A stretch of DNA of 64,000 bases, taken from positions 4,077-68,076 of IMG/VR virus record IMGVR_UViG_3300045988_110853, one strand, 5' to 3'. The stretch's first letter is position 1, and each line of letters opens with the position of its first letter. This stretch comes from a virus. The position numbers and the translations under genes were made by a program. Below are positions 6,859 to 25,305 of this stretch, piece by piece. The notes under the pieces are model-generated. The model did no database searches and was not told the DNA's origin. It saw only the letters and a program-made list of their open reading frames with translations.

Positions 6859-6917
6859 CAGTCAATCCTCCTCCCTCAGATTTTCGCGGTTACTACATAA
6901 TAACCATCAATGTAGTC

Positions 6918-8366: not shown

Positions 8367-8389
8367 TTACAAATTTCCTCCTTACTTAT

Positions 8390-8608: not shown

Positions 8609-8626
8609 TTAAATACACCTCCTTAA

Positions 8627-8897
8627 TCAATACTACCGCCGTCCCAAATATATGTATTATCAGGATCAGAAGGTTCGGTGCTTCCACCGCCACTACTATT
8701 ATTACTATTGGATTTCTATTCAACCCAAGTATTATTATCTTGATAAATATATAATTTTGATGATTTAGGAATAAAAGCGGTACTACCAGGGAGCAATGAA
8801 ATTGTTGGAATTTTTTCAATATCTTCAACAGAATCAACTATAAATTTCTTCAATCCATAATTAACTTTACCATTTTGATGTGTTAAAGTATACATCT
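8627..8897 (-). CDS. small structural-module protein (1 in-frame TAG)
   Basis: MYTLTHQNGK...WVE-TAG-KSNSNN..., TAA stop. Confidence 0.35.
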
Positions 8898-8999
8898 TAT
8901 TGCCTCCTCTTTTATTACATCATTCTAAATAATATAAAAAAATATTCTTTATGAATATAAAAAATTGGCCTACTGAAAATCTCAATAGGCCAATTAATT

Positions 9000-11549: not shown

Positions 11550-11636
11550 TGGTGGGCCGAGCTGGGATCGAACCAGCCGAGCATTCAAGCACCTGATTTA
11601 CAGTCAGGTCCGCTACCTTCTACGGGATACCGGCCC
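11550..11636 (-). tRNA. tRNA-Tyr (anticodon GTA), long variable arm, CCA encoded
   Basis: Manual fold: acceptor GGGCCGG/TCGGCCC, anticodon loop CTGTAAA, T-arm GCTGG TTCGATC CCAGC. Confidence 0.75.
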
Positions 11637-11980
11637 AAATATTTTTTATAATCCTTAATAAATCGCCAATAATCTTCTCGGTTATAAGGAATATTATTAT
11701 ATTTATTAAAATCATGTGTAAAAGCACTATAAATTAAAAAATCTAAATACTTAGATTTTAACTGAACGTGCCATTCATAAGAACCATCAAGTTTAGCTCC
11801 ATAAGCACGATGAAATAAAGTATATTCACCAAACCGCGCTTTATCTGCTAATACAATTTTAAAATTATCTCGACTATTATGAATATTTAAAACATCATAA
11901 CCAAGACCATTTTTAGTGAATTTATGATAACCACCAAAAGTTTCTTCACAATAATTTAAATAAATATCAAACATTCTCAT
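11585..11980 (-). CDS. hypothetical protein (3-prime end overlaps tRNA-Tyr)
   Basis: 131 aa ORF; C-terminal 15 codons are translation of the tRNA. Confidence 0.35.
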   Translation of the reverse strand: MRMFDIYLNYCEETFGGYHKFTKNGLGYDVLNIHNSRDNFKIVLADKARFGEYTLFHRAYGAKLDGSYEWHVQLKSKYLDFLIYSAFTHDFNKYNNIPYNREDYWRFIKDYKKYLGRYPVEGSGPDCKSGA

Positions 11981-12207
11981 TTGAGGGTTTTAATTAGGTT
12001 AACCCACAACCTCCGATAGTGTGTCTACTGAACCAAAGGAATGCCCGATCGCCACATTCCACTCTTTAAAAGATGGACGCTTCTAATCCTACTTCCTATC
12101 GTATAAAAGGACTTATCAATGACTTTTATACATATTGCCTTTATTATCTTTATAAACAAATTAGCATTACCCAGTGCTACCGCGAGGAGGTTTTGTTTTT
12201 AGCACCG

Positions 12208-12296
12208 CAGCCCCGCTGGGATTCGAACCCAGAACGACTCCTTCAAAGGGAAAACGGTTTTAGAGACCGCCGTGTTAACCGTTACACTACGGGGCA
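12208..12296 (-). tRNA. suppressor tRNA, anticodon CTA (reads UAG); type-II-like long variable region, discriminator G
   Basis: Manual fold: D-arm GTGT AACGGTTA ACAC; anticodon stem GCGGT/ACCGT with loop CTCTAAA; T-arm CTGGG TTCGAAT CCCAG; 21-nt variable region. Confidence 0.7.
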
Positions 12297-12307
12297 ATAG
12301 AGACTCC

Positions 12308-12490
12308 TTAATTCAACTTATGGAGTTTCCGCTTCATCTTATTAATGAGACGCTGATTCATAACTTCACCATGGGAATACAACTTCGCAATGCGATTTTC
12401 ATAATGCTCTTTAGTGCGACAAATCATAATTTTTCTCCTTAAATTGAATTTATGGTTCGGAGAGGGTATATCTGCGTCATCTAGACCCAA
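12308..12490 (-). CDS. small basic hypothetical protein
   Basis: 60 aa ORF. Confidence 0.3.
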   Translation of the reverse strand: MGLDDADIPSPNHKFNLRRKIMICRTKEHYENRIAKLYSHGEVMNQRLINKMKRKLHKLN

Positions 12491-12562
12491 TTTTTTAATT
12501 CATTATATATTCTTTCAGAGTAGCAAATTCCTAATCAAATATATAACTTAGCAGAACTCCGA

Positions 12563-12655
12563 TGGCACGGCCGGCTGGACTCGAACCAGCAGATGCAGGA
12601 GTCAGGGCTCAAAAGTTGGACTTGCACCAACATTCTCGGTTTTATAGGACCGGAA
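12563..12655 (-). other. tRNA-like element with T-arm and CCA-ending acceptor 3-prime strand; 5-prime half not foldable by eye
   Basis: GCTGG TTCGAGT CCAGC CGGCCGT G CCA on minus strand. Confidence 0.3.
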
Positions 12656-13023
12656 GCCTACTAACAGAACTTATATAATACTACTTAACCCCGTCATATT
12701 ATATAACCCATTTAACTGATTTTGAGAAAGTCCTGTGCCTTACCGATTTGGCGACGACCGTATAAAAACAAGACACCAAAGAATTTCAATCAATTCATTT
12801 CATTTGTTTGTCGATTAATTCTCTCTTACCCCAAACAAACTACACCTTCGACAGGTAATCAAAAAGTTATTGGTAAAACAATATCTTTGTAATTTCCTAC
12901 TATAGAAAAAATTCGCAGTTTGTGGTGTCTTTATTTAATTTAACATATTTAAACACGAACGCCGTGCTTCACCATTACACTAATTACAGCTGATTATTGG
13001 AATCGAACCAATCTTGCGTTCGG

Positions 13024-13101
13024 TGGTACAGAGACTGGGACTCGAACCCAGACGTCTTCTCCTTGTAAGGGAGATGTGTTAACCAGTTACACCATCCCTG
13101 T
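13024..13101 (-). tRNA. tRNA-Val (anticodon TAC), CCA encoded
   Basis: Acceptor ACAGGGA/TCTCTGT, anticodon loop CTTACAA, T-arm CTGGG TTCGAGT CCCAG. Confidence 0.8.
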
Positions 13102-13110
13102 ATAAGCAAC

Positions 13111-13305
13111 TTAATTAATAAAAGTTGCTACAAAATCCTTTTCAATCATATACATGGGAGCAGAAGCAAGGCCGCCATCATCAATCTTACAATACAGAAT
13201 AATATCTTCCGCATTGGGATTAGAAGCACGAGCAATTGCCTTTACAAGCTCCTTATTATCAATGGAATTATAATAGCAACCAAAATCAACAGAAGTCTTT
13301 TTCAT
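13111..13305 (-). CDS. small hypothetical protein
   Basis: 64 aa ORF directly downstream of class-A promoter. Confidence 0.4.
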   Translation of the reverse strand: MKKTSVDFGCYYNSIDNKELVKAIARASNPNAEDIILYCKIDDGGLASAPMYMIEKDFVATFIN

Positions 13306-13329
13306 TTTTTATCAATTCCTTTCTTAACT

Positions 13330-13368
13330 TTCTATATATATTATATTATATTTTTTATAAAAAATCAA
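13330..13368 (-). promoter_or_regulatory. class-A phage promoter (TTGATT-N17-TATAAT)
   Basis: -35 at 13363-13368, -10 at 13340-13345, conserved downstream ATATATAGAAAG. Confidence 0.6.
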
Positions 13369-13439
13369 AAAAGTTATTTCAAACTAGACACGTTAGAAAA
13401 CATAATTTCAAGTTATGTGCGTTAACCAATTTCGCCAAA

Positions 13440-13509
13440 ACCCCAGTTGGAGTTTACAGGATTTGAACCCGTATACCTTTCTAATGAAAGAATTGCTGTA
13501 TGTGTCTTA
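13440..13509 (-). other. tRNA-like 3-prime portion (T-arm ACGGG TTCAAAT CCTGT) without foldable 5-prime half
   Basis: T-loop GGTTCAAATCC on minus strand directly after tRNA-Pro. Confidence 0.25.
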
Positions 13510-13585
13510 TGGTCCGAGTGGAGCGACTCAAACGCTCGGCCTCTGCATCCCAAATGCAGCGTTCTATCAACTGAACTACACCCGG
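13510..13585 (-). tRNA. tRNA-Pro (anticodon TGG), CCA encoded
   Basis: Acceptor CCGGGTG/CACTCGG, anticodon loop TTTGGGA with G37, T-arm GAGCG TTTGAGT CGCTC. Confidence 0.75.
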
Positions 13586-13686
13586 AAATACGGCTAAGGT
13601 CCCGCACCACACATCCGATTTTTGTTCCCCACATATAGGAGTGGGTATGACCTTTAGGCGGAATCGAATTTGTTATTAACCGCCCA

Positions 13687-13763
13687 TGGTAGTCCGGGTG
13701 AGACTTGAACTCACGACCCTGCGATTATCAGTCGCATACTCTAGCCAGCTGAGCTACCGAACT
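13687..13763 (-). tRNA. tRNA-Ile (anticodon GAT), CCA encoded
   Basis: Acceptor AGTTCGG/CCGGACT, anticodon loop CTGATAA, T-arm GTGAG TTCAAGT CTCAC. Confidence 0.8.
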
Positions 13764-13824
13764 ATAAACAAGACTAAATTATCAATACTATTGCCTCTAC
13801 CAGTTGGGCTAACTCCCGATGGCC

Positions 13825-13866
13825 GGGAGCGAAGGACTTGAACCTCCAACACATAGTTCCCTTTAT
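13825..13866 (-). other. tRNA 3-prime fragment-like element (T-arm + acceptor strand + CCA) at start of tRNA operon
   Basis: GGAGG TTCAAGT CCTTC GCTCCCG G CCA; followed by inverted repeat CGGGAGT forming 7-bp hairpin; no 5-prime half. Confidence 0.35.
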
Positions 13867-13894
13867 GATAAAAATTGCTGTTTTAGTCTTTAAT

Positions 13895-13933
13895 TTATAT
13901 ATTTATTATATAATATTTTTTTATAAATGTCAA
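13895..13933 (-). promoter_or_regulatory. class-A promoter driving tRNA operon 13866-13440
   Basis: TTGACA 13928-13933, TATAAT 13905-13910. Confidence 0.6.
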
Positions 13934-13942
13934 AAAGTTTTA

Positions 13943-14800
13943 TTAAGTAGTTAAAAATGCGTTATAACCTTTTGATTTTAAATCATTGATTACTTTAATA
14001 GCATTTGCTTTTATAGAAAAAGCACCTACTTGAACTTTATAATACTTGCCTATCTTGCGAATATAAGCATTTTTATAACCTGCTCCAATAGTATCAGGTA
14101 ATGCTTTAATCTTCAATAAGAAAGCATCAGCATTGGATTTAGATCCAAAAGCACCAAGTTGAACGCGATAAATAATTTGCGGTTTAAGGTAAACTGCCAT
14201 TACATTATCTACTGCGCGATTACCCCAGTCTTTAGTAATACAAGTTCCATTGTGAAGAACTTTTGTGCTACCACCGCCATCAAGATTAATAGCATAATCA
14301 ACCTTTAATGTTAAAAGTAAATTCTACATTTCCGCAAACGCCATACCTGGCTTTTCAATAGCGATTAAATAAATATTAGATTTATTATATGCTAATACTG
14401 TTCTGCGAGCTTTATAATCTAATTCTTTAGCATAAGTAATTTGAGCTTTTTTACCAGCTTTAATTAATACCGGATAACCACTGACAAAATCTTCAAATCT
14501 TTCTGTCCCAATTATGCCATATTTCAATTCACCATTAACTATGCCAAATCCTTCTTTATAAGAAGAAGTAGAATTAATGATTACACCATTATCCATATAA
14601 TTAAAACAAGTAGCACCATTATCCATACTAAAGAAACCGCCATTAGTTAAAATAGTAGGTTTAACCGCACAACTATCATAATATTGCTTTAAAGTCTAAC
14701 GCGGTTGGGCGCATAACGCCATATCTAACTTACTAATTTCTTCTTTTGGAATTTCAATAATTTTCACATACGAATAATTATTTGGAGAATATATTTTCAT
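13943..14800 (-). CDS. putative cell-wall hydrolase: NAGPA (phosphodiester glycosidase)-like domain plus C-terminal SPOR domain (2 in-frame TAG)
   Basis: RBS aaggaaggtg; YAINLDGGGST motif; C-terminal SPOR repeats YRVQLGAF..YKVQVGAF; TAGs at 14324 and about 14700. Confidence 0.55.
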
Positions 14801-14860
14801 CGAATCACCTTCCTTAATATTTTTAAGGTTTTAATGATTCTTATTAATGGAATATACCCT

Positions 14861-14937
14861 TGGCATCCCCGGAGCGATTCGAACGCCCGACACAAGGATT
14901 AGAAATCCTTTGTTCTATCCAACTGAACTACGGGGAC
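14861..14937 (-). tRNA. tRNA-Arg (anticodon TCT), CCA encoded
   Basis: Acceptor GTCCCCG/CGGGGAT, anticodon loop TTTCTAA, T-arm GGGCG TTCGAAT CGCTC. Confidence 0.8.
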
Positions 14938-15043
14938 AAATTCGCTACAAGACTCTTTATTCTTCTTAATCCCACATTAAGCGCTTATTGAAAGCAAAAG
15001 ATTGCTGTATGAGTCTTTATTTAGTTAAGAAAGGAAATACCAT

Positions 15044-15087
15044 GACAATGGTAGGGTGAGGGAGACTCGAACTCTCCATTGAGCGAT
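15044..15087 (-). other. tRNA 3-prime fragment-like element (T-arm GGAGA GTTCGAG TCTCC + TCACCCT A CCA)
   Basis: Lies 10 nt after the CCA of the upstream tRNA-like gene; no 5-prime half. Confidence 0.35.
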
Positions 15088-15090
15088 TTG

Positions 15091-15170
15091 GCCTGTGAGC
15101 TAAGATTTGAACTTAAATCTTTGTAGCGCTTCCAATATTTTACCATTTAAACTACCCACAGATAAGTCGC
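15091..15170 (-). other. tRNA-like gene with good acceptor/D/T arms and CCA but unresolvable anticodon arm
   Basis: CTGTGGG TA GTTT AAATGGTA AAAT ... TTAAG TTCAAAT CTTAG CTCACAG G CCA. Confidence 0.35.
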
Positions 15171-15208
15171 CTAGTCTAGCCTTTGACTTACCACCCCAGA
15201 TCGGCGAG

Positions 15209-15727
15209 TTAAGAAACCCGCGATTTTAACCAGTAAACAGACATTCGTTCTTCCGGCTGATTAGTCATTTCACCTTTTGGCCCTAAAATTTCAGGATAAG
15301 GCCAAACATATTCATTTGCGGTCTTTTCATCAGGAAATTCAACTTCCGCGTAGCAAAACTTTCCATCAACTTCACTAACTTCAATCAATCGCCCAGGATT
15401 ATAAATATCTTGAACCATATAATAATCCTTAATAATAGGATTATAACCTTCGTGTCGAGTTTTTCTAATCATTTCATAGAAATCCACGGAAATAGATGTT
15501 TCAACTTCCTCACGAGAAAGACCATCGCCATATTTGTATGTCATCTTATAATCAACTTGATTGGTTTTAAGATTAATGGCTTTCCGCACTCGAATTTCTT
15601 CAAGCACCTTACCATCATTATCAAAATCAACCATAATATAAATCTGCTCGATTTTCTTATGACGAACACATTTTTCCTTCATCCAAGAAGGGATATTCTT
15701 AATATCAAACTTACGTTCGATTTCCAT
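15209..15727 (-). CDS. CYTH-domain protein (triphosphate tunnel metalloenzyme; CyaB-like cyclase or triphosphatase)
   Basis: N-terminal EIERKF (ExExK signature), 172 aa, TAA stop. Confidence 0.65.
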   Translation of the reverse strand: MEIERKFDIKNIPSWMKEKCVRHKKIEQIYIMVDFDNDGKVLEEIRVRKAINLKTNQVDYKMTYKYGDGLSREEVETSISVDFYEMIRKTRHEGYNPIIKDYYMVQDIYNPGRLIEVSEVDGKFCYAEVEFPDEKTANEYVWPYPEILGPKGEMTNQPEERMSVYWLKSRVS

Positions 15728-15862
15728 CCTTATACTCCTTTAACTCTTGGAAATAAGCAAGAATCTATTCATTCTTATCAATAATTTCTGGGTTATAATT
15801 GTAATATTTCATAGAAGCAATTTGTTGCTCCCATTCAATAATCAACTAATCTACTGTATATT

Positions 15863-16492
15863 TCATATTTTATCAAATCTCCAAACATAATTATAAGCAG
15901 TTTTACGCTCGCCTCGGGCGACGTCCGCGATCCTTTTTGCTATTGTATCAATTGATGCTTTTGATACTTTTTGTGAAGCAATCCATCTAGCTCCATCACC
16001 GCAAGATTCAAAGTGAGAAATAAAATTCCCATCTCGATCTAAACAAGATATAGGTTTATTTCCAATTTTAGGAGCAACTGTTTGAATTTTTCTTCCTTGA
16101 AGAATTTTACAAACTGTTTTTTCACTAATATTAAGATATTTAGCTACTTCTTTTTGATTTTTTATTTTCTGATAAGTGTCAATAACTAAATCATAATCAA
16201 GATATTTCTTACCATCTCCGCCGAGAGTAGCATTATACCCATTTTTAAAAGAACCTAATTTTTCAATCCAATAAATTTCTCTATCTTCTGGATTATCAGT
16301 TTCTTCAATTAACTCAACATGAAAATGTTCTATTCCATATTTTCGCATTGCTGAATATAATGGACGTTTTTCATAACTCTCTTTTTTAAAAGCTCTACAA
16401 TGTTCTAAAAATCTTTCTTCAACAGTTCTTTCAGTTTTACCAACATAAATTTTCTAATTTATGTCATTAGTAATTTTATAAATGTATGCCAT
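15863..16492 (-). CDS. GIY-YIG homing endonuclease (1 in-frame TAG)
   Basis: YIYKITNDIN-TAG-KIYVGKTE...YWIEKLGSFKNGYNATLGG; C-terminal basic DNA-binding region; RBS aaaggagc. Confidence 0.6.
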
Positions 16493-16523
16493 ACTAAAAT
16501 AGCTCCTTTCTATAAAATTTAAT

Positions 16524-16610
16524 TGGTGCTTTTGGTGAGACTCGAACTCACACGAACTTGCGCCCACTAGATTCTTAGTCTAGCATGTATACCAATTCCA
16601 TCACAAAAGC
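16524..16610 (-). tRNA. type-II tRNA (Leu-like) with anticodon AAG (unusual A34), CCA encoded
   Basis: Acceptor GCTTTTG/CAAAAGC, anticodon stem CTAGA/TCTAG loop CTAAGAA, long variable arm, T-arm GTGAG TTCGAGT CTCAC. Confidence 0.6.
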
Positions 16611-16624
16611 ATTTCTTTACTTTT

Positions 16625-16662
16625 CATATATTTATTATATATTATTTTTTTAATAAAGTCAA
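16625..16662 (-). promoter_or_regulatory. class-A promoter (TTGACT-N17-TATAAT)
   Basis: -35 16657-16662, -10 16634-16639. Confidence 0.55.
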
Positions 16663-16698
16663 AAGAGCCGGTGTAAAGTATATTCACTTTACACCGGC
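16655..16698 (-). terminator. rho-independent terminator after AAA+ ATPase gene
   Basis: 13-bp inverted repeat GCCGGTGTAAAGT/ACTTTACACCGGC then T-rich on minus strand. Confidence 0.55.
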
Positions 16699-16704
16699 CG
16701 CGTA

Positions 16705-17844
16705 TCAATAAAGATACTTGTCAAAGGTGTTTGCGACCTTAGTTAAAACAACAGACTTAATTACGCGCTCTTCTTTAGCTTTCTTAATAGCTTCTCCACG
16801 TTTTTCGCTATCTTCAATCGTCCAGAAGTCATCAGGATCAATATACACTTCAATCTTCTTCGGGTCTGCGGTAATCATACCCTTTTCGATCTTAATTGAA
16901 TCAGGGGTCAACGCATAACGAATAGTTTTATTATTTGAAGCATAACCATCATACCATCTCTGATGATTAGTATTGGGATTATTAAACAAATTAACCGAAG
17001 CGCCATAAGTGTTATACACATCACCATTTACAGTAGTAATAGCGATATTAAAACGCACATTAGAGGTCTGAGAGATATTGAGGTCTTCAAGAGTTTCCGC
17101 AACACCATAACCCTGATTAAGTTCAAAAGCAATAGCACGAAGATAATCATAAGTCATATTAACGGTGCGAGAGAAATTTACAATATCCTTAATACCGTCC
17201 GCATACTTTTCATCAATCTTATCAGTAAGATACTCTACAATCTCTTCCTCTGTTGGATAGGTAATCTTAAAATGATAATGGAAACGGCCCGGTCGATTCA
17301 ACAGATAAACGTTAAGTCGATCAACTTCATTACAAGTGATAACAAAAAGCTTCTTACCATTATCGAGACCATCAAAAAGAGAAAGCATTTCTTCCTGCGG
17401 AGACGGACCTGCATGATCTTCAACATTGGAAGCAAAGTTCTTTTCAAACTCGTCGAAAATAACTACAACTTCCTGCTCGATGCTGGAAATAAAATCCGCA
17501 ATACCAGGCATATAAGTGTTAGCCAAAAGCACAGGATATCCTTCATCAATAGCCTTCTGCGAAAGGATACGAGCAAACAAAGACTTACCGATACCCTTCT
17601 GTCCGCTTAGGATAACACCAAGATTGCGGTCCGAGTGCTTAAAAGAATTAAGCACCTTATTGACTTTAACTTCGTGATTACCATAAATCTTTTCCTCATT
17701 GACCGCAAGATCAGAACGAGAAGAAAGATAAAAACCTGCCATTTTATTAAAGCAGATTTCAAAAGACATAAGCGGAAGTCGCTTATAAGTCTTAACGTCC
17801 TCGCCATAAATTTGATAGCGAGAACCAGCATTTACAATATTCAT
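16705..17844 (-). CDS. AAA+ ATPase
   Basis: Walker A GQKGIGKS, Walker B VVIFDEFE, sensor NRPGRFHYHF; TGA stop. Confidence 0.7.
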   Translation of the reverse strand: MNIVNAGSRYQIYGEDVKTYKRLPLMSFEICFNKMAGFYLSSRSDLAVNEEKIYGNHEVKVNKVLNSFKHSDRNLGVILSGQKGIGKSLFARILSQKAIDEGYPVLLANTYMPGIADFISSIEQEVVVIFDEFEKNFASNVEDHAGPSPQEEMLSLFDGLDNGKKLFVITCNEVDRLNVYLLNRPGRFHYHFKITYPTEEEIVEYLTDKIDEKYADGIKDIVNFSRTVNMTYDYLRAIAFELNQGYGVAETLEDLNISQTSNVRFNIAITTVNGDVYNTYGASVNLFNNPNTNHQRWYDGYASNNKTIRYALTPDSIKIEKGMITADPKKIEVYIDPDDFWTIEDSEKRGEAIKKAKEERVIKSVVLTKVANTFDKYLY

Positions 17845-17871
17845 ACTTAATCCTCTTAATTTAAAGTTTAA

Positions 17872-17958
17872 TGGCGGAATCGCCGCGGCTCGAACGCGGA
17901 CTACTCAGTGAGTAGGATGGATTAGCAATCCATTGGAATACCATTATCCCACGACTCC
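17872..17958 (-). tRNA. tRNA-Ser (anticodon GCT), long variable arm, CCA encoded
   Basis: Acceptor GGAGTCG/CGATTCC, anticodon loop TTGCTAA, T-arm CCGCG TTCGAGC CGCGG. Confidence 0.8.
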
Positions 17959-18049
17959 ATATATATAAATAGAATAATTTACTGCTTAAACAGATGACGT
18001 CCTCGTTTAAACCATACCACACCCTCACCCAACACCTCAATTATTCTAT

Positions 18050-18286
18050 TTATTTACACCTATATATGATTAGCTTAGGCTTAATACTATATCCACAATA
18101 ACTACGCCAAGTGCGATAATTACTAAAAATATAATACTTTCTATCAGCTTTAATATTACCAAATAAATTTAAAACTCTCAATCCTTGGTTATAATGAGAA
18201 GTTTTATTATTCACTTGGTAATTAGCCCAATCAAGAATTTCTTGACCGCTAAAACAAGGATTTTTATAGCTTAAAATATTTTTCAT
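18050..18286 (-). CDS. hypothetical protein
   Basis: 78 aa ORF with RBS agaggagg. Confidence 0.45.
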   Translation of the reverse strand: MKNILSYKNPCFSGQEILDWANYQVNNKTSHYNQGLRVLNLFGNIKADRKYYIFSNYRTWRSYCGYSIKPKLIIYRCK

Positions 18287-18354
18287 ATCCTACCTCCTCT
18301 GCTTTTCTGGACTTGGAACCAGCTTATGGTAGCATTAGATAGGCGACCGCACTT

Positions 18355-18423
18355 ATCGTTCGCTAGGACAAAATTCGCAATCATCGCCAAAGATTAAATC
18401 ATCAACATCTTTAAACATATCAG
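18355..18423 (-). CDS. possible 22-aa peptide ORF (MFKDVDDLIFGDDCEFCPSER) with strong RBS
   Basis: aaaaaaggagg then ATG; followed by T-arm-like hairpin GCTGG TTCCAAGT CCAG. Confidence 0.2.
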
Positions 18424-18699
18424 ATAAACCTCCTTTTTTTATTTAATTTTTATGAAACAAAATAGAGAGTAGAAAAACAATTCATTCCCATAGAAGTGAG
18501 AGAAAACAACAATCTATAAAATATAACGAAAGGGGAAATCAAACAGAAAGATAAGTAAGAAAATGAACTAGAGTAAAAGACTCTCTCTATTAAATAGTCT
18601 TTTGTTCTATATACGATTAAATATATAGAAAGAGTAGCCCTCCGTCCGGGCATCCCAACAGCCACGAGCAGCAAAGTGGTTCCTCATTTGTTGGTCTTT

Positions 18700-18775
18700 T
18701 GGTGGGCGGAGACAGAATTGAACTGCCGACGCTAGGATCTTCAATCCTACGCTCTACCAGCTGAGCTATCCGCCC
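18700..18775 (-). tRNA. tRNA-Phe (anticodon GAA), CCA encoded
   Basis: Acceptor GGGCGGA/TCCGCCC, D-arm GCTC AGCTGGTA GAGC, anticodon loop TTGAAGA. Confidence 0.85.
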
Positions 18776-18989
18776 ATATTATTTATATTGCTACGATTCC
18801 CGATTCTCCACGTAGTTATTCTTCCTTTAAAATTGACTAAAAGAATATGATATTTTATTTATCGTACTACATCAACAATATAAATAAAACAAGACGCCGT
18901 AAACAATTTCAAGCATATGTATTTGGTACATTGATGTTTTAAAGTTTGCTGTTAGCGCCTTAATTATTCAAAAAGAAAGGAAAGATAAA

Positions 18990-19193
18990 TTATGCGTTCG
19001 CGGGTTCCGCGTTCTTCGGTCTGCGGAACTTTACATAACGCTCACCATCATATCGGGACATCCAAATGATTGTGCCATCCTTAAAATGGAAATCATAAGT
19101 AAAATCCTTATCCTGTTCATCAACCTGATGGCAAAAGCCCTTACCGTACTTCTTAGAATAAACCTTATCGCCGGGCTTAAACTTAAACTTCAT
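18990..19193 (-). CDS. hypothetical protein
   Basis: 67 aa ORF. Confidence 0.4.
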   Translation of the reverse strand: MKFKFKPGDKVYSKKYGKGFCHQVDEQDKDFTYDFHFKDGTIIWMSRYDGERYVKFRRPKNAEPANA

Positions 19194-19237
19194 TTAGATA
19201 TCTCCTTTTGGATTATTTTAATTACAAGACACAAATG

Positions 19238-19310
19238 AAATACTTGTTGGAATTGAACCAACTACATCTTGTTTAACAGACAAGCGCTCTACCAAATGAG
19301 CTAAAATACT
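19238..19310 (-). tRNA. tRNA-Asn (anticodon GTT)
   Basis: D-arm GCTC ATTTGGTA GAGC, anticodon loop CTGTTAA, T-arm GTTGG TTCAATT CCAAC. Confidence 0.7.
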
Positions 19311-19340
19311 TTCAATAGAAAATAATTGCTGTGTGTGCCT

Positions 19341-19427
19341 TATGGTTGCGGTTCAAGGGAGTCGAACCCTGTATCGCGCAGGTTATGAGCCTGGCATGAT
19401 TTATATATCCGTTTCACTCTACCGCAA
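19341..19427 (-). other. aberrant tRNA-like gene with CAT anticodon arm, 14-nt D-loop and 2 extra nt before acceptor 3-prime strand
   Basis: TTGCGGT...CCAGG CTCATAA CCTG...AGGG TTCGACT CCCT TGA ACCGCAA. Confidence 0.3.
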
Positions 19428-19503
19428 TGGTCGGTCAAATTAGAATCGAACTAATATCCCTTGTCTTATGAGAACAATGCTCTACCAATTAAGCTATTGA
19501 CCG
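19428..19503 (-). tRNA. tRNA-Met elongator-type (anticodon CAT), CCA encoded
   Basis: Acceptor CGGTCAA/TTGACCG fully paired, anticodon loop CTCATAA, T-arm ATTAG TTCGATT CTAAT. Confidence 0.8.
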
Positions 19504-19663
19504 AAAATGGGATAGATATAATATTCGCGACCATTATATCTATTGGACTTTCTAACCCATCGTCCCAAAATTCTTAATAGACCTCATCAAATGGCCAACT
19601 TTTGTAGAGGCTTTTGTGCGACCACCTGCGCACTTACATAGACATAAGAATGATGCCAACGTA

Positions 19664-19741
19664 TGGCGACCCAGGCGGGGCTTGAACCCGCGGTCTTAGC
19701 CGTGACAGGGCTACGTGATAATCCAACTTCACTACTGGGCC
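19664..19741 (-). tRNA. tRNA-Asp (anticodon GTC), CCA encoded
   Basis: Acceptor GGCCCAG/CTGGGTC, anticodon loop CTGTCAC, T-arm GCGGG TTCAAGC CCCGC. Confidence 0.8.
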
Positions 19742-19744
19742 ATA

Positions 19745-19821
19745 TGGTGATCCTGGTGGGGTTCGAACCCAACGACTCTACCTTGAAAGGGTAGTGACTT
19801 AACCCTCTTGTCGACAGGACC
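19745..19821 (-). tRNA. tRNA-Glu (anticodon TTC), CCA encoded
   Basis: Acceptor GGTCCTG/CAGGATC, anticodon loop CTTTCAA. Confidence 0.75.
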
Positions 19822-19889
19822 ATATAAATTACTTTTTGTTGAAGAAGAAGTATAACTCCTCCGATTATTGTTTAACTAACTAAATTAGG

Positions 19890-19966
19890 TGGTGGCCTCG
19901 GCCAGAATCGAACTGACATTATTAGATTGAGAGTCTAATTTCCTAATCCTTTTAGAAGACGAGGTC
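19890..19966 (-). tRNA. tRNA-Glu (anticodon CTC), CCA encoded
   Basis: Acceptor GACCTCG/CGAGGCC (one A.C mismatch), anticodon stem TTAGA/TCTAA loop CTCTCAA. Confidence 0.65.
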
Positions 19967-19969
19967 ATA

Positions 19970-20218
19970 TTAAGCACATCTATCATAATCCTGATTTTTG
20001 TGCTTTTGTTTTCGCTTAAACGAACCTTTGCCTTTCTTCGCAGGAACTTTGAATCCTCTGCGTCGAAACAACTGAAGATACTCATTGAGTTCTTCCTTAT
20101 TCTTTTTCATATAACTTTTATTCACGGTATTCATCCTCATCTTCATAAAGGGAAAGATCCTGATAAGCAGCATATTCATCACTCTGAATCTCACAAGCAT
20201 AGCTTTCATAGTAATCAT
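19970..20218 (-). CDS. small highly basic protein
   Basis: 82 aa, Lys/Arg-rich C-terminus, downstream of class-A promoter. Confidence 0.4.
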   Translation of the reverse strand: MITMKAMLVRFRVMNMLLIRIFPFMKMRMNTVNKSYMKKNKEELNEYLQLFRRRGFKVPAKKGKGSFKRKQKHKNQDYDRCA

Positions 20219-20249
20219 TATACATAATTTAAATCTTCCTTTCTTAACT

Positions 20250-20288
20250 TTCTATAAATATTATAACTTATTTTTTATAAAATGTCAA
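20250..20288 (-). promoter_or_regulatory. class-A promoter
   Basis: TTGACA 20283-20288, TATAAT 20260-20265. Confidence 0.55.
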
Positions 20289-20403
20289 AAGATTAAAAGA
20301 CTAACCAAAAGGCGATATTTGTTAACGATGGTCGCCACTCCACCGCCGCAACAACTACAAACATTTCACTATTTTTACACTACCCACATTAAAAGGAGGT
20401 GAC

Positions 20404-20491
20404 TGGTGCTTCGAGAGAGACTTGAACTCTCACCATCCGTTCGGATAATCGGGTTTGAGCCGATCGCGTCTGCCAATTCCGCCATCAAAGC
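20404..20491 (-). tRNA. tRNA-Leu (anticodon CAA), long variable arm, CCA encoded
   Basis: GCTTTGA TG GCGG AATTGGCAGA CGCG, anticodon loop CTCAAAC, T-arm GAGAG TTCAAGT CTCTC. Confidence 0.8.
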
Positions 20492-20530
20492 ATATCTGGG
20501 ATTTTTAAGAGGAATCCCTCAAACCTCTTT

Positions 20531-20630
20531 TCTAATCTCAAGAAGTTTTAACAAGATCTTCCAACTTGTTTCTAATCTAATGGAAGTTTTAAGAAGATCT
20601 TCCAACTTCTTTCTAATCTAAATCGCACTT
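20531..20630. repeat. about 40-bp direct repeat, 2.5 copies
   Basis: ttctaatctcaagaagttttaacaagatcttccaacttg / ttctaatctaatggaagttttaagaagatcttccaacttc / tttctaatcta. Confidence 0.6.
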
Positions 20631-20789
20631 TAGGGCGGCCGTCCCTCCGCGGCGTCACGGTAAATATTTAATATTTTATATCCGAAAAAGGTTATGAACC
20701 AAAACGGGATAATTATTTAAGATATAATTATCAAGACTACGCTAACTACTCAAATTTTCTCTTCTTAGTGGGAAAAACTTTCTTAGCGC

Positions 20790-20900
20790 TGAAACCAAAA
20801 TCACTATTAGCATTTTGTATATATTATCTTATTGTATATAAGTTTTATTCAGTATACCTTATCTATTATATCATTTAGTATACTATATTAATGTTTAATT
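20790..20900. repeat. AT-rich segment with repeated GTATA(C) motifs (iteron-like)
   Basis: ttgtatataag, cagtatacctt, tagtatactat within 100 bp. Confidence 0.3.
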
Positions 20901-21031
20901 AATAAGATAATATTTCTGGCTGCTTTTATCACCAATCATATAATCATCTATAATCGGTTATATCGGGCAATGCTCCCGAACTTGCGGTTTATCTACGCCG
21001 TGCTTACTCTTTACACCATATAACCATATAA

Positions 21032-21110
21032 TGGTGGACCTCGTGAGAATCGAACTCACCTGATTTTCTGTGTGCAAGACAGATGACCACGCCATGCAGT
21101 CCCGAAGCCC
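21032..21110 (-). tRNA. tRNA-Ala (anticodon TGC) with G3.U70, CCA encoded
   Basis: Acceptor GGGCTTC/GAGGTCC giving G3.T70; anticodon stem TCTGT/ACAGA loop CTTGCAC. Confidence 0.7.
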
Positions 21111-21197
21111 AAATATGCAACTTATTTATGTATAGATGGAGTTGCCAACCACCTGCGTTTAAAGTTCGCAAGCCTTCAACGCATTCCCAGGGAGGGA

Positions 21198-21274
21198 TGG
21201 TGCTGGAGAAAGGACTCGAACCTTCAGATTAATGATCCTAAATCATTCGTCTATGCCAATTCGACTACACCAGC
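21198..21274 (-). tRNA. class-I tRNA with anticodon TAG (would read CUA/CUG); identity unclear
   Basis: Acceptor GCTGGTG/CTCCAGC (one mismatch), anticodon stem AATGA/TCATT loop TTTAGGA, short variable loop, CCA encoded. Confidence 0.6.
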
Positions 21275-21290
21275 AAATAAAGAGTTTTAT

Positions 21291-21400
21291 CACCCACATT
21301 GCGAAGATTCGAACTTCGTCAGTCGTTGGACTCGAACCAACTTTTACTCTTTTGGATTCCCAGAACCCATAGCCTTGATTAATGTGAGTATAGCCACTAC
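21291..21400 (-). other. tRNA-like region with two T-arm motifs; structure unresolved
   Basis: CGAAG TTCGAAT CTTCG and GTTGG TTCGAGT CCAAC 20 nt apart on minus strand. Confidence 0.25.
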
Positions 21401-21514
21401 TTCACAATAAGTTTTACTTCGCTTCCTTATATTTAGTCGGGCGTTTTCCGCAAGCCACATACTCTTTCGATCGGTGGTAGTTTAAACTTATAAAATCCGT
21501 GTTAACGCCCCAAT

Positions 21515-21591
21515 GGCGGGAGATATAGGATTCGAACCTATGACACTTCGGTTAACAGCCGAATGCTCTGACCAGCTGAGCTAATCTCCCA
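21515..21591 (-). tRNA. tRNA-Asn (anticodon GTT), CCA encoded, second copy
   Basis: GGGAGAT TA GCTC AGCTGGTC AGAGC, anticodon loop CTGTTAA, T-arm ATAGG TTCGAAT CCTAT. Confidence 0.8.
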
Positions 21592-21619
21592 TAAAAGAAG
21601 GACTTTTTAAAATCCTTAC

Positions 21620-21659
21620 TTTATATATTTATTATATTATATTTTTTTTAAAAAATCAA
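21620..21659 (-). promoter_or_regulatory. class-A promoter (proximal of a tandem pair) driving tRNA operon
   Basis: TTGATT 21654-21659, TATAAT 21631-21636. Confidence 0.55.
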
Positions 21660-21707
21660 CTTTTCTCTTTTACCCAAGTTTTTTTATTTTCTTTTTTCTT
21701 TCTTCAT

Positions 21708-21747
21708 TTTATATAAATATTATATAATATTTTTTATAAAATGTCAA
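21708..21747 (-). promoter_or_regulatory. class-A promoter (distal of tandem pair)
   Basis: TTGACA 21742-21747, TATAAT 21719-21724. Confidence 0.55.
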
Positions 21748-21926
21748 TAAGGTCTTTGAATTGGCATTAAATCATCTTCTGAAAGAAGCCATTTTTCACC
21801 ATGTTCGTCAAGGACTTCAATCTGATAATTTAACACTCGAAGAACAGTACATTTAAGATACTGTCTGCGATAGCAACGACCGCGATAAGGGACAAAACAA
21901 TAAGAATTACCAACTTCAATATTCAT
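21744..21926 (-). CDS. small hypothetical protein
   Basis: 60 aa ORF with RBS aggagaaaataaata. Confidence 0.4.
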   Translation of the reverse strand: MNIEVGNSYCFVPYRGRCYRRQYLKCTVLRVLNYQIEVLDEHGEKWLLSEDDLMPIQRPY

Positions 21927-21949
21927 TATTTATTTTCTCCTTTCTCAAC

Positions 21950-21988
21950 TTTCTATATATATTATATTATATATTTTTTATAAAATCA
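21950..21988 (-). promoter_or_regulatory. class-A promoter
   Basis: TTGATT 21983-21988, TATAAT 21961-21966. Confidence 0.55.
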
Positions 21989-22016
21989 AAAAAGTTCTTT
22001 TGTTTAAAAAAATTAA

Positions 22017-22100
22017 ATGGCACCAGGGGTACGAGTCGAACGCATTACCACGAGATTTGGAGTCACGCCCCAGTCCCTCTGGGATTAAGGTTCCCCTGAT
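22017..22100 (-). other. tRNA-like gene, CCA encoded, possible CCA (Trp) anticodon arm, about 7 extra nt in D region
   Basis: ATCAGGG...CGTGA CTCCAAA TCTCG...ATGCG TTCGACT CGTAC CCCTGGT G CCA. Confidence 0.3.
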
Positions 22101-22119
22101 ATAAAACAAGACCTTAACT

Positions 22120-22200
22120 TTGCCCGGAAAATGGATTTGAACCATTAACTTAATCTTAAATGATTATGACCTAACCTTTAGTCTATTCTGGAAGTTATTT
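22120..22200 (-). other. tRNA-like gene with 6- or 8-nt anticodon loop (TAATC ATTTAA GATTA)
   Basis: Acceptor TCCAGAA/TTCCGGG with mismatch, D-arm GAC TAAAGGTTAG GTC, T-arm AATGG TTCAAAT CCATT. Confidence 0.25.
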
Positions 22201-22224: not shown

Positions 22225-22263
22225 TTATAAATATATTATATATTATTTTTTTAAAAATGTCAA
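22225..22263 (-). promoter_or_regulatory. class-A promoter
   Basis: TTGACA 22258-22263, TATAAT 22235-22240. Confidence 0.55.
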
Positions 22264-22269: not shown

Positions 22270-23148
22270 TTAATTTCGACCAACATCTAAAATATAACAA
22301 AAACCAGCTAATCTATATTCAGGTTTAAAGAAATATTGAGCTAAAGCTTTTGCGCAATGATCCGCAGAATTTCGTCCAGAAAGTTTAATGTTATTAAATC
22401 CAAGAGGAAGATACTTATCAATAATTTCATCCATATAAATCATATCTTTATTACCGATTTCTGGAAACATAGAATCATTATTTTTAATAGTAGTACAACT
22501 TCTTTCTTTATCATTAAAAGCCTGAAAAAGATTCATTTTAGAAAAAATATTATAATGAGTATATAAGCGCGGACAGTCAATAGGACATGTTTCGTCTACC
22601 AAAATTTCAATTCTATTCCTTTTATTTTCTGGTACAGAATTTAAAAAATCCCAGTCTCGATTTTTACGACGAGGAATAACTACACTTTCATAAATATCAA
22701 GTGCTTTTACAAAATCATAATCTTCCTTTGCAGCTGTAATACTCTTTGTAAGTTTATAATTAGGAAACTTATCTCGAAGATACTTTTCGAGAATAGGAGA
22801 ATTAACAATAATTTCATTCATTCCATTATCAAAAAGTTTAAGCATTTCATTACATTGTCTATCATATACGTCTGTTTCTTCAAGGTTAGGATTTGTAAGG
22901 GTAAAGCGCAAAATAATATTATTCTTTTCATAAAATTCTCGTACAGCACAGAGATAATCAATATTATGTTCTGGCATTCCGCCCATAAAACCTCCGCCAT
23001 TCCAAATCATGCCAGGAAGTGCACCATAAACATATTTTACTTTTGCTTCTGGATAAAAAGCTTGAGGTTCAAGCTCTTGAAGTTCAAGTAATCTATCATA
23101 AACATCAATACCATAATAAAATTCAGGGCAATTAAAATTAATATCCAT
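22270..23148 (-). CDS. hypothetical protein, last gene of YcaO/radical-SAM cluster
   Basis: 292 aa ORF, very AT-rich codon usage. Confidence 0.55.
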   Translation of the reverse strand: MDINFNCPEFYYGIDVYDRLLELQELEPQAFYPEAKVKYVYGALPGMIWNGGGFMGGMPEHNIDYLCAVREFYEKNNIILRFTLTNPNLEETDVYDRQCNEMLKLFDNGMNEIIVNSPILEKYLRDKFPNYKLTKSITAAKEDYDFVKALDIYESVVIPRRKNRDWDFLNSVPENKRNRIEILVDETCPIDCPRLYTHYNIFSKMNLFQAFNDKERSCTTIKNNDSMFPEIGNKDMIYMDEIIDKYLPLGFNNIKLSGRNSADHCAKALAQYFFKPEYRLAGFCYILDVGRN

Positions 23149-23161
23149 TTATATTCTCCTA

Positions 23162-24979: not shown

Positions 24980-25014
24980 ATAAATATATTACTATATTTT
25001 TTTAATAAAGTCAA
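24975..25014 (-). promoter_or_regulatory. class-A promoter variant (TTGACT-N17-TAATAT)
   Basis: -35 25009-25014, -10 24986-24991. Confidence 0.45.
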
Positions 25015-25083
25015 AAACCTACCAAATAAAGTGGTAGGTTTTTGACTTTATCAAATTAAATAAAAACAATTAGGGCATAAATA

Positions 25084-25305
25084 CTAATTATCATTTATTT
25101 TAAATAATGGGATATTATTTATTTGTAAATTACATTTAGAGCATCGTTTATTTTTATAAATTTTTGGTATAAAAATTTCTATATCTGGTTCAAATAAGTT
25201 TAAAAGATTATTAGATATTCTTTGAAAATAAATATCTTTTTCTTCATTACTATCATTATAATTATATTGTAAAATATATTCACACATTATTTTACAATGA
25301 TTCAA
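25084..25305 (-). CDS. small Cys-containing hypothetical protein
   Basis: 73 aa ORF; TAG-interrupted coding continues upstream to about 25700. Confidence 0.3.
   Translation of the reverse strand: MNHCKIMCEYILQYNYNDSNEEKDIYFQRISNNLLNLFEPDIEIFIPKIYKNKRCSKCNLQINNIPLFKINDN

Follow-up and report, generated by a model that had tools for sequence, protein, structure and literature searches.

Large phages such as T4, T5 and the Herelleviridae carry clusters of transfer RNA (tRNA) genes that lie on one strand behind strong early-type promoters, with small open reading frames (ORFs) and homing endonucleases interspersed and with turnover of their content. A cluster of this kind is present on the minus strand of a 64,000 nt stretch, in the following called the window, of the IMG/VR virus record IMGVR_UViG_3300045988_110853 (positions 4,077 to 68,076 of the record). 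It shares one-strand clustering, promoters, interspersed ORFs and turnover with the known clusters, but differs in containing a suppressor tRNA together with a putative ribozyme, and in belonging to a recoded genome. This amber suppressor tRNA with the anticodon CUA (Sup), and especially its extra arm, is the main subject of this study.

Phages that read TAG as glutamine (genetic code 15) were described among the Lak, crAss-like and Garnet/Amethyst/Jade/Agate phages (Borges et al., 10.1101/2021.08.26.457843) and for phAss-1 (PMC10607447). They resemble the window phage in the concentration of in-frame TAGs in structural and non-early blocks, in the location of the suppressor tRNA in a standard-code context, in the meaning of TAG and in that no phage aminoacyl-tRNA synthetase (aaRS) was seen. 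Different from these phages, the window phage has no nucleotide-level relative in INPHARED, where the only match was a 42 nt piece of tRNA-Pro. When phage suppressors were assayed in E. coli extract, 28 of 29 tRNA-CUA inserted Gln and all 13 tRNA-UCA inserted Trp (PMC12636597, a 2025 preprint). How host enzymes charge tRNAs with CUA or UCA at an efficiency sufficient for a change of code was left open in the discussion of Borges et al.

In the phages studied by Kienbeck et al., 85% of the Sup tRNAs had a theta ribozyme beside them, and such ribozymes were shown to be active (PMC10879173). A ribozyme directly after a suppressor tRNA that lacks an encoded CCA end is therefore a known arrangement, and both cases have in common that the phage reads TAG as Gln and that one ribozyme type serves different upstream tRNAs. 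The segments ACC-U-CC-N4-GGU, GG, GUAAxG and CUAA are also shared with the layouts in the part of Supplementary Data 1 of that study used for comparison; helix P1 has 6 bp in the window and 7 bp in Theta0001 listed there. The window sequence furthermore has one extra encoded C (C74) before the cleavage site. Neither the ribozyme nor Sup had an exact match in the searchable part of the supplementary tables of that study.

In E. coli, glutaminyl-tRNA synthetase (GlnRS) accepts CUA tRNAs that have G73 and in which the 1:72 pair is weak or broken, as known from supE, a tRNA-Gln(CUA), and from the Gln-mischarging mutants of su+3 tRNA-Tyr(CUA); the long variable arm of su+3 is no bar to charging with Gln. 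An anticodon-like loop in the extra arm is absent from these tRNAs, whereas the phage family described here combines a Gln-type body throughout with a mimic loop. A hairpin that copies the cognate anticodon loop and thereby attracts the anticodon-reading synthetase is known from the thrS mRNA operator (PMC9976931). There, the mimic is located in an mRNA leader and represses translation, while the phage mimic is inside a tRNA and would act in charging.

TAG as a sense codon in the window

Relatives for comparison were ten IMG/VR contigs found via the ATPase gene within the array. They measure 159–197 kb where complete and show about 90% nucleotide identity to the window.

Minus-strand frames that were short under the standard code fused when TAG was treated as sense. 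This was the case for 25713-27767 (684 amino acids, 8 TAG), 9000-11030 (676 amino acids, 4 TAG), 1746-2510 (5 TAG) and 13943-14800 (2 TAG), and all fused frames terminated at TAA or TGA. Pfam domains were intact in the fused proteins (radical SAM plus GT2, NAGPA plus SPOR, GIY-YIG), and the radical SAM plus GT2 protein had 87 full-length homologs. Recoding of TGA was considered and rejected, as reading TGA as sense merged no real minus-strand frames and many ORFs stop at TGA. The window thus shows what defines code 15 in phages: in-frame TAGs in conserved genes, fragmentation that is relieved by code 15, and a phage-encoded CUA tRNA. TAG was found at 4.8 per 1000 codons in the blocks 1-11030 and 22270-36394 compared to 0.4 in 36627-64000. 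The TAG-poor block has a GC content at third codon positions (GC3) of 0.44, compared to 0.18 in the TAG-rich blocks, holds most of the consensus promoters and is presumably the early region.

The meaning of TAG was deduced from three comparisons. In the paralogs 1746-2510 and 3104-3892, TAG was aligned with Gln twice. In codon-level alignments with the relatives, 14 of the 17 non-TAG codons opposite window TAGs were Gln codons (9 CAA, 5 CAG), and the reverse comparison of the relatives' TAGs with window codons gave the same picture. With three more loci included, CAA or CAG alternated with TAG at 19 of about 32 variable sites, and the exceptions were mostly in a fast-evolving island of low GC content. 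Since CAA is two positions away from TAG, the exchange reflects synonymy and not mutational proximity. Finally, two conserved TAG columns of the radical SAM plus GT2 protein held Gln in 51 of 67 and 43 of 87 homologs, against a background of 4%. Together, these independent lines (paralogs, codons of relatives, homolog columns) strongly indicate that TAG is glutamine in this phage.

The two paralogs have their N-terminal 120 residues in common while their C-termini diverge, and the ORFs beside them have a high content of Ala, Gly, Ser and Thr. They look like exchangeable tail-fiber or receptor-binding modules.

The suppressor tRNA, its alleles and its ribozyme

Sup has a U1.U72 mismatch, G2:C71, G10, G73 and C74; the anticodon is located at 12263-12261. 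Compared to the identity set of tRNA-Gln for E. coli GlnRS, it has the weak or unpaired 1:72 position, G2:C71, G10, G73 and U35, and the long-arm family as a whole is similar in this respect; Sup lacks G36 (A36 in the anticodon CUA) and G3:C70 (3:70 is C:G). The tRNA-Gln(UUG) genes of this phage group have U1:A72 or A1:U72, G2:C71, C3:G70 and G73. The U1-A72 pair is an element that is read by GluRS2 and amidotransferases (PMC9976931). The Rfam alignment of Sup showed a 17 nt insertion in the variable region.

Three unrelated alleles occupied the Sup locus between conserved flanks: allele A with 90 nt (window and L002-L007), allele B with 73 nt (L008-L010) and allele C with 72 nt (L001). All of them had a pyrimidine–pyrimidine mismatch at 1:72, G2:C71, G10, G73 and C74, which are features of the Gln type, and suppressor and ribozyme were kept in 11 of 11 related genomes. 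When only genomes with the long-arm allele were considered, three of four variable TAG sites still alternated with Gln codons. As this exchange also occurs within the allele-A genomes, the long-arm allele is expected to insert Gln and not Ser, Leu or Tyr.

Charging of Sup like a tRNA of class II shape, with TAG meaning Ser, Leu or Tyr, might be suspected from its 90 nt, its long variable region and G73, which resemble bacterial tRNA-Ser, and a few Sup tRNAs in Kienbeck et al. (PMC10879173) have non-Gln predicted isotypes. We nevertheless consider this very improbable. Only one of the 17 non-TAG codons opposite TAG was a Ser codon, the predominance of Gln holds within the long-arm genomes, and the conserved TAG columns hold Gln. 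In addition, Sup lacks A73, which is needed for Leu and Tyr, its U.U mismatch at 1:72 belongs to a Gln-like body, and an extra arm with a 7 nt loop and a 5 nt 3' tail was unlike the arms of 141 Leu/Ser/Tyr controls. By G73 together with U1.U72, and by the exchange of TAG with Gln codons, Sup falls outside class II. Pairwise identity of Sup and of the UAG tRNA to the other array tRNAs was not discriminating.

The sequence following Sup has the nested double-pseudoknot layout of theta ribozymes, as judged segment by segment against the compared part of Supplementary Data 1 of Kienbeck et al.: GGUGCU-AA-AAACAAA-ACC-U-CC-UCGC-GGU-AGCACU-GG-GUAAUG-CUAA-UUUGUUU. Read by eye, P1 (GGUGCU/AGCACU) has 6 bp including a G1.U wobble, P2 is AAACAAA/UUUGUUU and P3 ACC/GGU. 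The CC in L3 (UCCUCGC) pairs with the GG after P1 (P1.1), P4 is minimal, and J4/2 is CUAA with the catalytic C. G1 of the ribozyme (12206) directly adjoins C74, the last tRNA base (12207), and so lies within the ±5 nt of a tRNA 3' end used to assign such ribozymes. The element was nearly invariant across 11 genomes and was the only copy in the window in a motif scan. The ribozyme should cleave 5' of G12206 and leave a tRNA ending in U72-G73-C74. In L005 and L010, a tRNA-Ala without CCA is followed by another theta ribozyme that differs from the first, while the Ala gene in the same slot of the window has CCA. Encoded CCA and ribozyme are therefore alternative routes to the 3' end.

The first-pass annotation had listed Sup among the tRNAs of the array. 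This stands, but neither the reading of TAG as Gln nor the self-cleaving ribozyme nor the anticodon-like arm had been recognized there.

An anticodon-like loop in the extra arm

The extra arm of Sup consists of one linker base, a helix of 3–4 bp (UUCC/GGAG), a loop of 7 nt and then 5 unpaired bases that resemble the variable loop of a class I tRNA. The loop, CUUUGAA, is an exact match to the anticodon loop of tRNA-Gln(UUG) in relative L011. The string UUGA occurs in Sup only in this loop (12248-12242).

We scanned IMG/VR for CTCTAAA-N(22-32)-GGTTCGAATCC, which returned 108 stretches, and 80 loci were fetched. ARAGORN found 70 CUA tRNAs in these, most of them 86–94 nt long. The family set was defined as the 50 unique long CUA sequences that begin with U or A; as the scans required the T loop GGTTCGAATCC, its counts are not unbiased. 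A heptamer N-U-Y-U-G-R-N on top of a helix was present in 41 of the 50, most often as CUCUGAA (17), UUCUGAG (11) or CUUUGAA (6). In an unbiased list of hairpins with a 7 nt loop, CUG (24) or UUG (7) stood at the center in 31 of 39 cases, compared to 1 of 41 for the long arms of Leu, Ser and Tyr tRNAs from the same loci. The strict loop motif was found in 30 of 51 long CUA tRNAs and in none of the 141 Leu/Ser/Tyr controls. The arm helix covaried: the two inner pairs were formed in 41 of 41 sequences by five pair types, and 111 of 123 helix cells were paired, compared to 70.5 ± 4.5 after shuffling of the partners. The acceptor end of the long-arm family was uniform, with a weak or mismatched 1:72, mostly G:C at 2:71 and G or A at position 73, whereas class I CUA tRNAs from a parallel scan had heterogeneous acceptor ends.

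The loci with long-arm tRNAs showed the imprint of TAG recoding. Coverage by open frames increased from 0.61 under the standard code to 0.83 with TAG as sense and to 0.70 with TGA as sense. This corresponds to a gain of 0.22 for TAG versus 0.08 for TGA, and the gain was larger for TAG in 33 of 39 loci.

A parallel was seen for opal suppressors. A scan for long tRNA(UCA) yielded 19 unique sequences, of which 14 were selenocysteine (Sec)-like, with GG starts and long arm stems. In all five non-Sec tRNAs (A1 or G1 and a Trp-like acceptor end with G73; among loci L257-L389), the loop of the arm was N-U-C-C-A-A-N, which corresponds to the anticodon loop of tRNA-Trp, and this loop was present in none of the 14 Sec-like tRNAs. 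Suppressors with a cognate anticodon loop in a second arm thus exist for both codon reassignments known from phages, TAG to Gln and TGA to Trp. From these comparisons, an anticodon loop in the extra arm appears as a recurrent feature of many unrelated code-15 phage contigs and, with the Trp loop, of opal suppressors.

Several other arrangements were seen. Class I and long-arm CUA tRNAs stood in tandem, 3–5 nt apart, in two phage groups (L037, L070, L084 and L097; L030, L051, L053, L089 and L092). The reverse order of arms, with the Gln arm first and the CUA arm next to the T arm, was searched for and found in a single chance case. Long tRNA-Ile(UAU) genes of 92–94 nt were present in L163 (5378-5469), L200 (4858-4951) and L203 (929-1020), with extra-arm loops CAGAUUA or UAGAUUG that hold the standard Ile anticodon GAU. 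They may be a third case of an anticodon-loop arm, with a looser match (A33, U37).

Our literature searches, which were incomplete so that earlier work is possible, found no prior description of an anticodon-like extra arm in suppressor tRNAs, and it is not discussed in PMC12636597, the preprint of Borges et al. or the main text of PMC10879173. The two-armed architecture is apparently undescribed; as an observation it is statistically solid.

Working of the array and role of the second arm

We consider it likely (probability of about 0.8) that the array supplies the translation kit for a large phage in which TAG is read as Gln in structural and other TAG-rich gene blocks. Host RNA polymerase would transcribe the array from the consensus promoters and RNase P would generate the 5' ends of the tRNAs. 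The 3' ends would be provided by the encoded CCA, or by self-cleavage of the ribozyme followed by a CCA-adding enzyme; in this way the suppressor, the sole essential tRNA lacking CCA, would obtain its 3' end from the ribozyme. After charging by the glutamine pathway of the host, the suppressor would compete with release factor 1 (RF1) at TAG, and the TAG-containing proteins would be made.

As to the arm, we tentatively propose, at somewhat less than even odds, that these suppressors are two-armed: the arm with CUA or UCA would serve the ribosome, and the second arm with the cognate loop (YUG for Gln, CCA for Trp) would be a cis identity element for the charging machinery of the host. This machinery would be GlnRS, or the non-discriminating glutamyl-tRNA synthetase (GluRS-ND) with GatCAB, or tryptophanyl-tRNA synthetase, and recognition might involve an alternative fold. 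The second arm would restore the anticodon identity (U35, G36) that is lost with CUA and so secure charging with Gln; read by Gln-specific enzymes, it would make up for the missing G36 and, where relevant, U34. On the route via GluRS-ND and GatCAB, U34 is the main anticodon identity element (PMC9976931). Since Bacillota hosts often lack GlnRS and use this route, anticodon identity would be an even bigger problem for a CUA tRNA there.

Several observations weigh against these proposals. In sister phages, class I alleles without an extra arm occupy the same locus and TAG still means Gln; the extra arm is therefore not indispensable. Some members of the long-arm family have loops of 4–5 nt in which only YUGA is kept. 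The variable region of a canonical L-shaped tRNA faces the solvent on a class I synthetase. With an arm of only 3–4 bp, the loop would therefore not reach the anticodon-binding domain unless the tRNA adopted an alternative fold, in which the arm would take the position of the anticodon arm next to a 5 nt variable loop. The match of the ribozyme to the hepatitis delta virus-like Rfam model RF02682 (HDV-F-prausnitzii; E 0.004 on 231 nt) reached 26.1 bits and so fell short of the gathering score of 44; Rfam has no theta-specific model. It showed no covariation, as all copies were nearly identical. As most ORFs had no assignable function, the labels late and early are based solely on GC3 and on the densities of TAG and of promoters. 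Scans of about 30 window ORFs with PHROGs and Pfam detected no aaRS, release factor, CCA-adding enzyme or RNA ligase, and a second suppressor, an aaRS, release factor 2 (RF2) or a CCA-adding enzyme may be encoded elsewhere in the genome, beyond the 64 kb analyzed.

The main rival to a function in charging is that the arm is a relic: an ancestral tRNA-Gln would have duplicated its anticodon arm, one copy then changing to CUA and the other having no identity role. In many members, the two hairpin loops differ by a single base (CUCUAAA and CUCUGAA), as expected after a duplication, and the sufficiency of class I alleles in sister phages fits this explanation, as does the geometry, which disfavors a direct contact of the arm with the anticodon-binding domain of the synthetase. 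We regard it as possible but rather unlikely. The stems have diverged with compensatory changes, yet the heptamer of the loop was kept, only the two Gln anticodons prevailed at its center, and the independent set of opal suppressors kept the loop of Trp. A conserved loop on diverged, covarying stems together with the parallel for Trp points to selection on the sequence of the loop.

Composition of the tRNA array

ARAGORN called 20 minus-strand tRNAs between 10855 and 22192, and 17 of these were backed by Rfam model RF00005 with scores of 33–73 bits (gathering score 29 bits). A sensitive Rfam scan with permissive filters added the elements at 22122-22192 (37.9 bits) and 15092-15161 (41.8 bits), the latter of which had been missed by ARAGORN. 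The call SeC(tca) at 10855-10934 was rejected as a false positive; it is inside the conserved ORF 9000-11030 and had no Rfam match. ARAGORN labels the CUA tRNA Pyl, which is simply a matter of nomenclature. The array in the window consists of about 19 tRNA genes, 17 solid and two to three weaker ones, all on the minus strand (Table 1). Three of the 19 credible calls had no encoded CCA (Sup, tRNA-Asn at 19237-19310 and the tRNA-like element at 22122-22192), whereas the other 16 did.

These results agree with the first-pass annotation, which had listed at least 18 foldable minus-strand tRNAs, most with encoded CCA. Automated folding returned the same anticodons throughout, including AAG at 16524-16610, UAG in a class I tRNA at 21198-21274, UUC and CUC for the two Glu tRNAs and CUA for Sup. 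The members singled out as unusual (Leu-AAG, class I UAG, both Glu) are genuine, but all of them can be explained, and the presence of both Glu isoacceptors is unremarkable.

Table 1. Position of tRNA genes, the ribozyme, promoter motifs and selected ORFs in the window.
Feature	Position	Strand	Evidence or context
tRNA-Tyr(GUA), type II, CCA	11550-11636	-	ARAGORN; Rfam 33.1 bits
HDV-like theta ribozyme	12154-12206	-	Rfam HDV-F-prausnitzii; layout; motif scan; conservation
Amber suppressor tRNA(CUA), Sup, 90 nt, no CCA	12207-12296	-	ARAGORN; Rfam 56.2 bits
Extra arm of Sup, stem UUCC/GGAG, loop CUUUGAA	12238-12252	-	Sequence; loop of tRNA-Gln in L011; family statistics
tRNA-Val(UAC), CCA	13024-13101	-	ARAGORN, Rfam
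tRNA-Pro(UGG), CCA	13510-13585	-	ARAGORN, Rfam
tRNA-Ile(GAU), CCA	13687-13763	-	ARAGORN, Rfam
Perfect sigma-70-type promoter motif (13933-13905)	13905-13933	-	Motif scan
NAGPA (phosphodiester glycosidase) plus SPOR ORF, lysin-like, 2 in-frame TAG	13943-14800	-	Domain match; both TAGs kept in relatives
tRNA-Arg(UCU), CCA	14861-14937	-	ARAGORN, Rfam
Degenerate tRNA-like element	15092-15161	-	Rfam 41.8 bits; fold; alignment
GIY-YIG homing-endonuclease-like ORF, 1 in-frame TAG	15863-16492	-	Domain match; alignment with relatives
tRNA-Leu(AAG), type II, loop CUAAGAA, CCA	16524-16610	-	ARAGORN, Rfam
Promoter motif, 11/12 (TTGACT-N17-TATAAT)	16634-16662	-	Motif scan
AAA-type ATPase ORF within the array	16705-17844	-	Domain match; anchor for finding relatives
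tRNA-Ser(GCU), type II, G73, CCA	17872-17958	-	ARAGORN, Rfam
tRNA-Phe(GAA), CCA	18700-18775	-	ARAGORN, Rfam
tRNA-Asn(GUU), no encoded CCA, no ribozyme	19237-19310	-	ARAGORN, Rfam, motif scan
tRNA(CAU), elongator-Met-like or Ile2-like, CCA	19428-19503	-	ARAGORN, Rfam
tRNA-Asp(GUC), CCA	19664-19741	-	ARAGORN, Rfam
tRNA-Glu(UUC), CCA	19745-19821	-	ARAGORN, Rfam
tRNA-Glu(CUC), CCA	19890-19966	-	ARAGORN, Rfam
Perfect sigma-70-type promoter motif (20288-20260)	20260-20288	-	Motif scan
tRNA-Leu(CAA), type II, CCA	20404-20491	-	ARAGORN, Rfam
tRNA-Ala(UGC), G3:U70, unusual D arm, CCA	21032-21110	-	ARAGORN; under Rfam cut-off
Class I tRNA(UAG), Leu-type D arm, A73, G37, CCA	21198-21274	-	ARAGORN; Rfam 59.8 bits
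tRNA-Asn(GUU), second copy, CCA	21514-21590	-	ARAGORN; Rfam 72.7 bits
Tandem promoter motifs, 21747-21719 (12/12) and 21659-21631 (10/12)	21631-21747	-	Motif scan
Divergent Trp(CCA)-like element, aberrant D region	22025-22100	-	Read by eye; no ARAGORN or Rfam call
tRNA-like element, 6 nt anticodon loop, no CCA	22122-22192	-	ARAGORN ???; Rfam 37.9 bits; alignment
Perfect sigma-70-type promoter motif, upstream end of array (22263-22235)	22235-22263	-	Motif scan
YcaO cyclodehydratase	23162-24979		Low-GC island
Radical SAM plus GT2 fusion, 8 TAG	25713-27767	-	Low-GC island
Radical-SAM/SPASM-like protein, TAG inside CxxxCxxC motif	30035-31537		Low-GC island

An extra tRNA-Leu(AAG) with A34, which is edited to inosine (I34) by TadA and has the core UAAG, is known from several Firmicutes, for example S. 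pyogenes and O. oeni (PMC11472039). Leu-AAG of the window shares with these the type II Leu body, A34 and the loop C-U-A-A-G-A; it also has A73, and its loop CUAAGAA fits a TadA substrate. It differs in being encoded by a phage, and editing by host TadA is predicted from the loop only. The gene was invariant in the relatives, and CUU is the dominant CUN codon in the window. Relatives also carry Thr-AGU and Ser-ACU as further A34 tRNAs (L002 6259-6333, L011 9756-9844), neither of which has the UAxG core that marks TadA substrates. Thr is most often encoded by ACU in the window, which itself contains no tRNA for this amino acid.

The class I UAG tRNA has the Leu-type D arm GAAUUGGCAUAGAC, similar to Leu-CAA and Leu-AAG, and its D and anticodon stems showed compensatory changes in L004 and L011. 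In L010, a canonical type II Leu-UAG is present in the same slot. These features are best explained if the class I UAG tRNA is a tRNA-Leu from which the long arm was lost. An unusual D arm kept tRNA-Ala(UGC) below the Rfam cut-off, but its G3:U70 pair and CCA end are present and the gene was conserved in the relatives.

Two further elements are degenerate tRNA-like remnants. The one at 15092-15161 has intact acceptor, D and T arms and CCA but a broken anticodon arm, and occupies the slot of the relatives' tRNA-Ile(UAU). The other one is located in the Trp slot (around 22025-22100), where the relatives carry other Trp alleles or nothing. The element at 22122-22192, the first after the upstream promoter, was conserved, with the loop AUUUAA in most genomes and CUUCAA in L002 (4525-4595). 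With the U assigned to position 33, the two loop variants would read as stop-codon anticodons (UUA and UCA).

The tRNA slots behaved as cassettes between conserved flanks. Besides the three Sup alleles, UAG was present as class I or type II, Trp as at least three alleles or absent, and Ile-UAU as two alleles or the degenerate remnant of the window; Ala genes either had CCA or were followed by a ribozyme. That phage tRNAs can evade anticodon nucleases is known. Replacement slot by slot (Sup, UAG, Trp, Ile-UAU, Ala) suggests diversifying pressure, and the array might replace host tRNAs that are cleaved or depleted in infection, with the odd shapes (class I Leu, long-arm Sup, A34) as escape variants. 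Such a role in counter-defense, which is compatible with a translation kit for TAG-containing genes, seems unlikely to us: nothing in the window identifies a nuclease target, and the Gln and Trp loop motifs and their link with TAG-recoded loci would not be explained.

Promoters, embedded ORFs and codon demand

Perfect motifs (12/12) of the type TTGACA-N17-TATAAT were found 16 times in the window, compared to 0.04 expected. Fourteen are on the minus strand, four are in the array, and most of the others are at 56–64 kb. The leftward consensus promoters that had been proposed at 13895-13933 and 21620-21747 were confirmed as sequence motifs (Table 1). Nine perfect motifs lie at 56.6–64 kb among small TAG-free ORFs; others are located at 35636, 36479 and 40917. 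Some motifs have the whole spacer TTGACATTTTTAAAAAAATAATATATAAT in common with the array promoters.

Several ORFs are embedded in the array. The GIY-YIG gene directly follows Leu-AAG, with its in-frame TAG at codon 13, and is in the slot of the relatives' tRNA-His(GUG). It is likely a homing-endonuclease insertion that removed the tRNA gene. ORF 11585-11980 on the minus strand shares about 50 nt with the 5' part of tRNA-Tyr, and its stop codon is TGA in the window and TAG in two relatives. A match similar to twister-P1 at 18291-18341 (minus strand) reached 39.1 bits compared to a gathering score of 67.2 (E 2e-7 on a short stretch). It has no P3 and was 95–99% conserved in nine relatives. The Shine-Dalgarno sequence of ORF 18050-18286 overlaps with its 3' part, so that the match may be due to chance.

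Upstream of the array, the region 22270-32700 is an island with 22–29% GC, which also holds several unassigned ORFs. With its YcaO and radical SAM genes, it looks like a phage-borne modification cluster of the type known for ribosomally synthesized and post-translationally modified peptides (RiPPs).

The first-pass annotation had suggested to compare the codon usage of late and early genes with the set of isoacceptors. This comparison did not discriminate between them, with the exception of TAG itself: coverage of codons by the array tRNAs amounts to 54% for TAG-rich and 57% for TAG-poor genes, and TAG is the only late-specific codon demand. The other array tRNAs serve abundant codons ending in A or U (AAU, UAU, AUU, GAU, GAA, UUU, AGU, AGA, CUU). 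The similar coverage, the match to abundant codons and the frequent occurrence of large tRNA arrays in big phages would all be in agreement with an ordinary set for codon usage and host independence, in which the CUA tRNA is incidental or non-functional and no recoding takes place. We give this explanation hardly any credit in view of dozens of in-frame TAGs in conserved, domain-bearing genes, the exchange of TAG with CAA and CAG, and the retention of suppressor and ribozyme in all related genomes.

Relatives and host

The array ATPase is 42% identical at the amino acid level to proteins of Enterococcus myophages. A suppressor identical to the long-arm Sup was found on the 163,874 bp contig CAMELE010000001.1 (L467), which is binned in a metagenome-assembled genome of an "uncultured Mollicutes" and is probably a mis-binned phage of the same clade. 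A tandem suppressor pair was present on a contig binned as Erysipelotrichaceae. The scan of genome contigs was dominated by chance matches, with bins assigned to Mollicutes, Erysipelotrichaceae, Bacillota and Alistipes, and a viral scan with the tail-fiber-like protein as query returned three loci only. These weak hints suggest that the host probably belongs to the Bacillota.

Implications

With its array, its recoding of TAG to Gln and its ribozyme-matured suppressor, the window phage adds to the examples of phenomena that were described recently. Automated isotype calls may mislabel two-armed tRNAs as Tyr, Ser or Pyl (pyrrolysine), and the architecture is also of relevance for work on genetic-code expansion that mines phage suppressors. 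If the second arm is indeed an identity element, this would explain the efficient charging of suppressors of code-15 and code-4 phages without a phage synthetase. A cognate anticodon loop in the variable region would then be a new kind of tRNA identity device, apparently reached separately for Gln and Trp.

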